Source: a virus
Taxonomy: Duplodnaviria > Caudoviricetes
IMG/VR virus record: IMGVR_UViG_3300025103_000132
Coordinates: 1 to 26,591 of that record
Length of the DNA: 26,591 nucleotides
Direction: 5' to 3' (one strand)
Part shown: positions 18,384 through 25,016 of the stretch, in pieces
Position numbering within the stretch: position 1 is the first letter of the stretch
How the letters are laid out: every line of letters begins with the position of its first letter
The notes under the pieces: model-generated
Databases searched by the model: none
Told to the model about the DNA's origin: nothing
Seen by the model: the letters and a program-made list of their open reading frames with translations, nothing else
Program-made: the position numbers and the translations under genes

Positions 18384-18580
18384 TATTCTTTTGTGGCAGC
18401 ACCCATAGAAACTTTAGTTACTTTGATTTCGAGGTCTTGTCTAAAATCATCCACAGAAGTGTCAGTATTGGGATCAGCAACATCATTATCAAAATCAATT
18501 TTACTAGCATATATTTTACCAGTTCTTTTGTGTTTAATAATTTCTTTTGCTTCAGCTGGTATTTTTATTATATCACTCAT
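18383..18580 (-). CDS. Small hypothetical protein (65 aa)
   Basis: Start and stop overlap both neighbours, in operon orientation. Confidence 0.75.
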   Translation of the reverse strand: MSDIIKIPAEAKEIIKHKRTGKIYASKIDFDNDVADPNTDTSVDDFRQDLEIKVTKVSMGAATKE

Positions 18581-23402: not shown

Positions 23403-23431
23403 ATTATACCCTTTTTAAGCTGCTATATCAA
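23403..23431 (-). promoter_or_regulatory. Near-consensus sigma70 promoter, (near-)leaderless transcript
   Basis: TTGATA(23431-23426)-N17-TATAAT(23408-23403). ATG at 23394 is only 8 nt downstream, with no SD. Confidence 0.75.
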
Positions 23432-24293
23432 CTTCTGTCCAAGTATTAGAAACCCCTTTATTTACTTCAGTCCATGTGTTGGTCACATCTGGATCTACGT
23501 TAGACCAAGCAGTAATTAGTGGACCATTTATAGATCCAGTTAATTGAATACCTGTGACTGCAACCTCTACTCCAGGAACAGCTACTGCTGTACCAATAGA
23601 AGAGGTCAACTGAGAACCTGTAACATCTACAGGAGTATTTATATCTATGGTTTCTTCTCCTAAAGCAGCTGTTATTAGACTTCCAGTTACACTAACATTT
23701 GCATCTGCGGTAGTTGTTGCAGAACCTATTGACGTTTGTAATTGACTTCCTGTAACATCAACATCTTTACTTATTGCAATAGAAACTGAATTAACTGAGA
23801 ATGTAGCTTGACTTCCTGTAATACTTATATTTGCGTCACCTGTTACATCAACACTATTTGTTGACATAACCATGTCATGTTCAGTAACAATAACACTGAC
23901 ATTACCGTCAGCACTTACAGAATAAGTACCAAGTGATAAACCTAATTGTGAACCCGTAACTGGTACGTTTGCATTTCCTACAAGAGCTTCTTCTCCCATT
24001 GACATAGTCAATTGAGATCCAGTTACTGCAGCACTTGCTCCAGCTTGAGTAGAAGCACTTCCAATAGAACCTGTTAACTGAGAACCTGTTACACTTACAT
24101 TAGTGTTTATATCAATATTAGAATTTCCTAAAGACCCTGTTAATTGTAAACCTGTGACGGCTACATTTGCATTTGCAGTTACAGTTGTAGCACCGATAGA
24201 ACCTGTTAACTGTGAACCTGTAACGGCTACGTTGACACTAGTTCCTCCTAAAGAAGATATCGGGGACTGTGATAAAGCTGTAATACCTAACAT
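23415..24293 (-). CDS. Repeat-containing putative virion protein (about 11 x 22-aa VTGSQLT repeats)
   Basis: VxVTGSQLTxSIG repeated at a period of about 22 aa; Ser/Thr/Val/Gly-rich; C-terminal W-x10-W-x10-W; AAGGA SD 9 nt upstream. Confidence 0.8.
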   Translation of the reverse strand: MLGITALSQSPISSLGGTSVNVAVTGSQLTGSIGATTVTANANVAVTGLQLTGSLGNSNIDINTNVSVTGSQLTGSIGSASTQAGASAAVTGSQLTMSMGEEALVGNANVPVTGSQLGLSLGTYSVSADGNVSVIVTEHDMVMSTNSVDVTGDANISITGSQATFSVNSVSIAISKDVDVTGSQLQTSIGSATTTADANVSVTGSLITAALGEETIDINTPVDVTGSQLTSSIGTAVAVPGVEVAVTGIQLTGSINGPLITAWSNVDPDVTNTWTEVNKGVSNTWTEVDIAA

Positions 24294-24305
24294 ATAATAA
24301 AATCC

Positions 24306-24347
24306 TTAAAAGGAGACAGGGGGTATGTGGTGGTGCCCTGCCTCCAT
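24306..24347 (-). other. Candidate leaderless leader peptide MEAGHHHIPPVSF
   Basis: ATG GAG GCA GGG CAC CAC CAC ATA CCC CCT GTC TCC TTT TAA, starting 6 nt after a TATAAT box. Translation is not demonstrated. Confidence 0.4.
24308..24345 (-). terminator. GC-rich stem-loop followed by UUUU (terminator/attenuator or small RNA)
   Basis: GGAGGCAGGG / CCCUGUCUCC 10-bp stem (one G-U), 14-nt loop CACCACCACAUACC, then UUUU. Confidence 0.65.
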
Positions 24348-24353
24348 CTAAGA

Positions 24354-24362
24354 ATTATATCA
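24354..24362 (-). promoter_or_regulatory. Extended -10 promoter TGATATAAT
   Basis: Exact TGnTATAAT built from the upstream TGA stop codon; weak -35 (TTCCTT) at 17 nt. Confidence 0.65.
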
Positions 24363-25016
24363 TCGCTTAAACCACGAAGGAAGACCTAGATGAGGTCTTT
24401 TATCAAACATATTGTCCTTTGCACCTGGTGTTTTACGATTATTATAATGTAAAAAAACCTGTACGCATTCCTTACCTTTAAATTTATTTCTCCAATGCTC
24501 TAGTTCACACCCAGAGTAAACTAACATATCACCTTGTTTTAAATCTACTTTAATACCTTTAGCTTTGCTTTCAGCAGTTATTTTTCCCCCATTTGGTATA
24601 CCCACATTTTGATCAGGGCTAAGATATATAGGCCAAGGATCACCACCTAAATTCATAGTAGTAGATATCTCGCAACTAAATCTATCTTTGTGTCTTTTTA
24701 ATTCATCACCTTTTTTATATATTCTAGCATAAGTATATGCAGGATATAATTTAAGTCCTGTTGCTTCTTCCATTTTAGGAAGGCATTTTAATAATAAAGT
24801 TTCCATAGCCATATTTGCATATTGCGAATAAGTGTTTGGAATCTGTTCATCTTTACCTTCATAATACCCAATTATTGTCTCAAAAGGTGAGAAGTATCTT
24901 GATTGTTTACAGGTATCATAAACTTGTTTTTGCATACTAAAATAATTTGCAATAAAACTAGCTAAGTCTTTTGATATTGCTTGACGGATAACTGTATATT
25001 TTTTCTTTTTAAACAT
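24360..25016 (-). CDS. 2OG-Fe(II) oxygenase family protein
   Basis: YTYARIY..GDELKRHKDRFSCEIS (HxD), GDMLVYSGCELEHWR (distal His), QVFLHY. Start at 25016 (MFKKKKY) gives the usual short overlap, unlike 25082. Confidence 0.85.
   Translation of the reverse strand: MFKKKKYTVIRQAISKDLASFIANYFSMQKQVYDTCKQSRYFSPFETIIGYYEGKDEQIPNTYSQYANMAMETLLLKCLPKMEEATGLKLYPAYTYARIYKKGDELKRHKDRFSCEISTTMNLGGDPWPIYLSPDQNVGIPNGGKITAESKAKGIKVDLKQGDMLVYSGCELEHWRNKFKGKECVQVFLHYNNRKTPGAKDNMFDKRPHLGLPSWFKR

Follow-up and report, generated by a model that had tools for sequence, protein, structure and literature searches.

We focus here on a short element on the minus strand of a viral DNA fragment of 26,591 nucleotides, IMG/VR record IMGVR_UViG_3300025103_000132 (the window, by which we mean the whole stretch of DNA that was analysed). 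The fragment comes from a pelagiphage of the HTVC023P type: in an alignment of the region with HTVC023P, 80% of 901 bases are covered at 76% identity, and the genes follow the order gp65-gp72. The element lies at the junction between a cluster of 2OG-Fe(II)-oxygenase genes, whose last member carries the predicted promoter P1 in its final codons and TGA stop, and a gene for a 292-aa protein that heads a co-oriented run leading into the tail and virion genes. The features of the junction are as follows.

24360..25016, minus strand: upstream gene of the 2OG-Fe(II)-oxygenase cluster, last in the cluster, annotated 'ferrochelatase' (phrog_2954); homologue of HTVC023P gp67, 84% identical
24354..24362, minus strand: predicted promoter P1, extended -10 TGATATAAT, without a consensus -35 in the near clade
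24347, minus strand: predicted +1 (A of an ATG), placed from spacing at the seventh base after the -10, two bases before the inner stem
24306..24347, minus strand: 13-codon ORF, translated as MEAGHHHIPPVSF and a stop; present here, unconserved
24336..24345, minus strand: inner stem, 5' arm; 10 bp with 24321-24312, including one G.U pair
24322..24335, minus strand: 14-nt loop with the core CCACC at 24333-24329; consensus (A/U)CCACCACA
24312..24321, minus strand: inner stem, 3' arm, pairing with 24345-24336
24308..24311, minus strand: short U run (UUUU), a possible leaky 3' end
24294..24310, minus strand: outer stem, 3' arm, including the SD AAGGA (24307-24303); pairs with 24362-24347
23415..24293, minus strand: downstream gene of 292 aa in the position of HTVC023P gp68, without PHROG or Pfam family

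The oxygenase cluster is described in PMC9599517, the covered part of which never uses the words promoter, hairpin or intergenic. The 'ferrochelatase' label of the upstream gene looks doubtful: no Pfam family matches the protein, and its PHROG is that of the adjoining oxygenase. Within the virion gene run, more consensus-like promoters are seen on the minus strand at 23403-23431 and 18567-18575, and the run is thus probably transcribed from several host-type promoters. The phage also encodes an AEP-type primase and Pol A.

Most of these features had been recognised in a first-pass annotation of the DNA, and they hold on re-examination. The extended -10 at 24362-24354, the TGA of which doubles as the oxygenase stop codon, does place the A of the ATG at the seventh base downstream, the +1 itself being a prediction; the frame from 24347 to 24306 does encode the 13-codon peptide; the GC-rich stem, the loop and the UUUU are where they had been reported, with 23 of the 34 nt of the stem-loop being G or C by direct count; and the ORF stop TAA does overlap the SD AAGGA of the next gene, 9 nt ahead of the ATG at 24293. 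Extended -10 sequences occur in the window at chance level (three observed, 2.57 expected). The hairpin, on the other hand, exceeds chance, with z-scores of -3.6 over 43 nt and -7.0 over 69 nt and none of 200 shuffles equally stable; the opposite strand of the hairpin region gives z -0.9. RNA initiated at P1 is predicted to fold as a single hairpin comprising 91% of the ensemble, in agreement with the earlier remark that no antiterminator pairing is evident. An outer stem of about 15 bp is predicted in addition (24362-24347 with 24310-24294, one mismatch), spanning the -10 box and the entire SD. This is the extension of the stem into the SD in read-through RNA that had been called before as CUUAGA/UUUAAG; covariation in the near clade supports it, and its extent had been under-called.

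Relatives of the locus were fetched by the downstream protein (79 loci), by the oxygenase (80) and by a diverged oxygenase (80), with more obtained by DNA patterns, and they are treated below as a near and a far clade. The 290 instances of the element reduce to 74 distinct hairpins, three false matches (L092 minus, L116 minus and the second in L141) having been removed before counting. The detector demanded CCAC, and the unbiased figure for the loop is therefore that of a motif-blind check on 160 oxygenase-fetched loci, in which the loop motif was not required: 142 have a strong hairpin behind the oxygenase stop, 11 have no hairpin and 7 are truncated, and CCACC lies in the loop of 141 of the 142, L146 being the exception. 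Among the loci fetched by the downstream gene, a strict detector finds the element in 34 of 79, 33 of these 34 having an oxygenase or a remnant of it upstream, and a relaxed scan adds a 35th (L067); the other 45 of the 79 show no oxygenase within the DNA examined. In two context-free scans of 120 matches each, 52 of the 54 hairpin-bearing matches sit at the same junction. Loose scans with the loop only return the element in 2 of 121 and 1 of 120 matches, almost all of the rest being chance.

The element is present in HTVC023P (44919-44992) and in 023Pt_psg01, with one copy per record; in four of five records and in the window, the count is one plus its own reverse-strand echo. It is also found on contigs of three Pelagibacteraceae assemblies and one other bin (four of five), which presumably are phage DNA. 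No element was found in HTVC033P or HTVC027P, the latter giving a weak match of 19 bits, without a CCACC loop, to the near-clade model R1; R1 was built on the near clade, scores at best 35 bits in the far clade and can miss far-clade copies in genome searches. The position upstream of tail and virion genes is fixed among relatives, and both flanking genes are variable. The unit persists where the upstream gene has been replaced (L067, L435, L441, L461, L479, L502, L514, L010, L774, L809 and L840) and likewise where the downstream gene has been replaced. In L010, a gene has been inserted behind the oxygenase, which there lacks the hairpin, and a duplicated promoter stretch keeps the unit before the virion gene. 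A partnership with the oxygenase enzyme was considered and rejected, as the unit stays after loss of the enzyme gene and leaves it upon gene insertion. The element is dispensable, given the 11 loci without a hairpin, the lack of CCACC in L146 and the absence of the element from HTVC027P and HTVC033P.

The stems of relatives are partly unrelated in sequence and covary, yet the CCACC of the loop is retained. Covariation across relatives, which the first-pass annotation had put forward as a check, is found in both clades, the counts being inflated by relatedness: in the near clade (59 sequences, 24 pairs), 91.8% of cells are paired, 14 of the 24 pairs show changes in both partners, and the covariation score reaches 0.325, where shuffled alignments give 0.146 and slid registers at most 0.096; in the far clade, where anchors were set without regard to pairing and chance matches were kept in, 22 of 35 arm pairs are fully paired (8/8), with 78% overall against a shuffled maximum of 71%. 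The 74 distinct hairpins have stems of 9-16 bp and loops of 7-19 nt. Loop positions +5 to +7 are A in 69, C in 63 and A in 67 of the 74, and G is nearly absent from the loops (13 of 1011 bases). Of 815 stem pairs, 122 are G.U, and in 63 of 74 hairpins the sense strand gives the better fold. Both observations argue for RNA rather than DNA, and we are highly confident that the hairpin is a functional RNA structure. A search of Rfam 15, also proposed earlier, gave no family match over the element in the window and 11 relatives at E up to 1 and 5.

The promoter is preserved along with the hairpin. Among 224 distinct contexts, the extended -10 is present in 168 of 170 from the near clade, and a TTG/TTT-17-TATA arrangement in 52 of 54 from the far clade, where the -35 is TTGACT in 20, TTGCCT in 11, TTTACA in 11 and TTGACA in 4, at 17 bp from the TATA box, a spacer to which the scoring gave an advantage of half a point. 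From the -10 to the start of the stem, the distance is 5-9 nt in every one of the 224 contexts, and 7-8 nt in 49 of the 54 far-clade and 152 of the 170 near-clade contexts. Furthermore, the promoter stretch is retained despite replacement of the upstream gene in L435, L441, L479 and L010. Many far-clade -10 boxes lack the last T, a form that is common in alphaproteobacteria according to the part of PMC7703639 used here. P1 is very probably a real promoter. One far-clade subgroup (L664:2130-2146 and loci akin to it) has a 6-bp inverted repeat, its centre 5 nt long, across the P1 -10 box; this is a possible operator.

The first-pass annotation had proposed an attenuator responsive to ribosomes, His-tRNA or metal, in which a leaderless His-rich peptide begins at the predicted +1. 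An ATG does stand at the stem base in 43 of the 74 distinct hairpins, with His-His-His encoded in 13 and HH in 20. However, 31 of the 74 have no ATG, including most of those from the far clade, and the 43 with an ATG take the loop in three different frames (His codons in 21, Pro in 18, Thr in 4), have variable stops and give ORFs of 13 to more than 40 codons; the loop of HTVC023P itself (L281) reads Pro-Pro. It had been suggested that an invariant loop with loss of frame would speak for RNA and synonymous CAT/CAC exchange for a peptide; the loop is near-invariant while ATG and frame are lost, and the answer on those terms is RNA. Amino-acid attenuators of the hisL type share with the element only the tandem His codons of this one genome and differ from it in having a conserved ORF, an alternative structure and a biosynthetic operon. 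With the single predicted fold of the P1 RNA leaving no antiterminator pairing, we consider a peptide attenuator sensing His-tRNA, ribosome speed or metal to be almost certainly wrong, and the 13-codon ORF is read as a by-product.

The GC-rich stem is also what an intrinsic terminator would present. A UUUU run follows the stem in 28 of 74 hairpins and at least five U within 8 nt in 14 of 74; 73 of 74 have a run of 1-4 U, never more than four in a row, and in 26 of 74 the run is absent or only 1-2 long. Intrinsic termination works poorly with loops as large as 11-19 nt. Together with the long loops, the short U run means that a discrete 3' end is not predicted by the sequence; a leaky end at the U run is possible, given that nearly all hairpins have one to four U. 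A terminator scan of the window, with a rule of a 3-8 nt loop and five T, omits the hairpin. An ordinary intrinsic terminator was thus rejected on the poorly kept U tract, the loops of 7-19 nt and the absence from the scan.

Downstream of the hairpin, two architectures are found. In the near clade, the gene follows the stem at a distance of 10-25 nt in 135 of 139 contexts. Of the 139 contexts with a called gene, 135 are without a second promoter, so that the gene must be read through the hairpin. In the far clade, on the other hand, 44 of 46 contexts have 29-84 nt between the stem and the next start, and 33 of 48 distinct stretches carry a second promoter-like site between hairpin and gene, which makes the hairpin unit look free-standing. 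In this second site (L651-L726, before a virion gene of the MLQKIGF type), the TATA box is often extended and is preceded by TTGA/TTAA at a spacing of 15 bp instead of 17; it is possibly a separate, activator-dependent promoter class, and the 15-bp-spaced form was found in none of four near-clade genomes.

The outer stem differs between the clades, with a mean of 10.9 of 12 positions paired in the near clade versus 4.2 of 12 in the far clade. In the window, the predicted cost of opening the ribosome site at 20 C is 14.9 kcal/mol in read-through RNA versus 2.2 kcal/mol in P1 RNA; over 90 near-clade contexts, the medians are 14.8 and 3.5 kcal/mol, and the two RNAs differ by at least 2 kcal/mol in 88 of the 90. 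Medians of the same two costs are 7.0 and 2.2 in 11 contexts of a subgroup without ATG, 12.0 and 3.0 in the far clade where a gene is close (two contexts), and 7.5 and 7.9 in the far clade where it is distant (42 contexts). On these modelled costs, the outer stem appears to occur where a gene follows closely, and we think it likely that it controls translation. In the near clade, the outer stem would form only in RNA read through from the oxygenase genes, hiding the SD of the 292-aa gene, and transcripts from P1, being without its 5' arm, would keep the SD accessible, in the manner of T4 gene e. The stem might also be opened by a ribosome halting at the oxygenase UGA, which provides the first base of the outer arm, and we therefore infer translational coupling as an alternative use of the stem.

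The arrangement is close to that of the T4 late-gene switches of e, soc, 49 and I-TevI as they are described in the portion of PMC3014915 considered, where the promoter likewise lies inside the 5' arm of an SD-hiding stem and its own transcript likewise lacks that arm. The pelagiphage promoter, on the other hand, is predicted to be of the sigma70 type, the outer stem occurs in some clades only, and it is built on an inner hairpin whose conserved loop stays in the short transcript. In HTVC027P, which is without the element, the oxygenase and the tail gene are both classed as late (PMC12753301 table S3, in the part seen), which makes an early/late role of the outer stem, as in T4, less plausible.

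The part common to both clades comprises the promoter, the inner hairpin and the loop core. Our leading explanation, held tentatively and with a little less than even confidence, is a hairpin RNA of about 40 nt with a docking loop and its own promoter. Where a second promoter is lacking, the next gene would be served by read-through. Whether the hairpin is a released small RNA rather than only a leader seems to us evenly balanced. P1 would be a sigma70 promoter starting at the stem base, and the base-paired 5' end of its RNA would confer resistance to decay, 5' secondary structure being reported to block RppH and RNase E in the section of PMC3997798 consulted. Some transcripts would end at the stem base or be trimmed to it, the G-free loop would pair with GGUGG-containing RNA or bind a protein, and the next gene would obtain its mRNA from transcription that continues beyond the weak U run. 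A promoter independent of both neighbours is present as far as sequence can tell. A stand-alone RNA of about 40 nt with an exposed C-rich loop had been the other option of the first-pass annotation; the RNA and its loop fit the conservation, but the conserved core is CCACC(ACA) and not CACCACCAC, which occurs in 28 of 74 hairpins.

A partner for the loop was sought at several levels. Of 181 contexts, only 2 have a GGTGG within 150 nt on the upstream side and 15 on the downstream side, no shared complementary site is found near start codons in four phage genomes with crude ORF calls, and the loop complement shows no excess in three partial host assemblies; with a seed of only 5-8 nt, these negatives are weak evidence either way. 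Searches for a pseudoknot partner in cis, for a phage mRNA as target and for a Chi-like role were likewise negative. The unit is never elsewhere in the genome (52 of 54 at the same junction), as expected of a cis element, which counts against a released small RNA. In a more specific reading, the hairpin RNA would be made from a host promoter and its CCACC(ACA) loop would work in trans, as a decoy or seed directed at a host component that recognises single-stranded C/A sequences of this kind, and some clades would have built a tail-gene translation switch around the hairpin. The motif presumably resembles tRNA 3' ends and the anti-SD core; three incomplete host assemblies yielded no 16S 3' end. 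The SAR11 host group is thought to use few small RNAs. We regard action in trans of this kind as rather unlikely.

The main rival is a cis-acting 5' leader, which we judge somewhat unlikely. The hairpin would stay on the mRNA of the tail/virion operon and protect its 5' end, while read-through or stability would be set by a protein of phage or host, bound to the loop in a nut/put-like or operator-like manner. It agrees with the constant position of the hairpin at the predicted +1 and ahead of virion genes, with the weak U run, with the missing second promoter of the near clade (135 of 139 contexts) and with the 5'-structure effect on RppH and RNase E in the same section of PMC3997798. The second promoter of the far clade, however, allows transcription of the operon without the hairpin, and stabilisation alone leaves the loop sequence unexplained, no candidate binding protein being at hand. 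A DNA-level site, such as a replication origin or primase hairpin or a packaging or Chi-like signal, with the promoter as primer source or incidental, would suit the single copy and the phage's AEP-type primase and Pol A, but the G.U pairs and strand bias favour RNA, the absence from HTVC027P and 11 related loci is unlike an essential origin, and the complement is not enriched in hosts; we hold it to be very improbable. Improbable too, though less so, is a module boundary similar to the PeSLs of T4-type phages, at which the hairpin terminates or attenuates transcription coming from the oxygenase cassette or is cut by RNase III, P1 restarts transcription, and the conserved stretch serves as a recombination linker between variable modules. 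As presented in the part of PMC2839356 drawn on, PeSLs join a sigma70-like promoter to a terminating stem-loop that can overlap the -10; those of RB49 and phi1 likewise combine an intergenic stop codon, a sigma70-like promoter, a G/C-tract stem-loop and an SD, and are likewise placed between variable genes. Here, too, both flanking genes vary, and the extended stem reaches about 25 bp with a 1x1 mismatch. However, the PeSLs of that source are multi-copy, terminate upstream transcription and mediate shuffling, whereas the pelagiphage unit occurs once per genome and lies downstream of the +1, where its conserved core would stop P1's own transcript. The fixed CCACC loop is needed by no known terminator, most far-clade loci do without the long stem (on average 4.2 of 12 positions paired, versus 10.9), and in L010 the unit stays with the duplicated promoter stretch, the oxygenase being followed by an inserted gene without the hairpin.

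As far as we have checked, the element is real, conserved and undescribed in the literature examined; the parts of that literature covered here, including PMC2864571, PMC2704228, PMC12379486 and bioRxiv 10.1101/2019.12.14.876532, yielded no description of it. It is akin to a C-rich-loop small RNA or a leader hairpin, onto which some clades have probably built a T4-like switch. 6C RNA, an Hfq-independent sRNA with C-rich loops, likewise exposes a single-stranded C-rich loop on a stable stem in the account of PMC6486639, as far as it was drawn on; the pelagiphage element differs in being one hairpin of about 40 nt with the core CCACC, phage-encoded and without an Rfam match. Fremin et al. 2023 (PMC10690425) list IMG/VR-based candidate viral RNAs, with 44 rows having Pelagibacterales hosts; among the 22 of these 44 rows considered, several candidates are 38-69 nt long. 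The two tables of PMC10690425 that were compared contain none of the motif strings, and the pelagiphage hairpin may be among the unnamed candidates of that study. The presence of a defined, single-copy RNA element with a near-invariant five-letter loop in the cultured HTVC023P makes it testable in HTCC1062, and identifying the loop's partner would reveal how gene regulation is achieved in a streamlined host by a phage for which no RNA polymerase of its own is known.

Two further observations were made along the way. In cyanophage tRNA clusters (L922:872-925 minus; L983:600-640, Synechococcus phage Bellamy), a covarying hairpin with a similar ACCACC-rich loop sits between tRNA-Arg and tRNA-Gly, with a consensus promoter ahead of it in L922; it has no Rfam match. 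In HTVC027P, the gap between gp34 and gp35 (L412:7700-8200) holds a non-coding, GC-richer stretch of 548 bp with several long inverted repeats, adjoining genes that are reported in a separate expression cluster.
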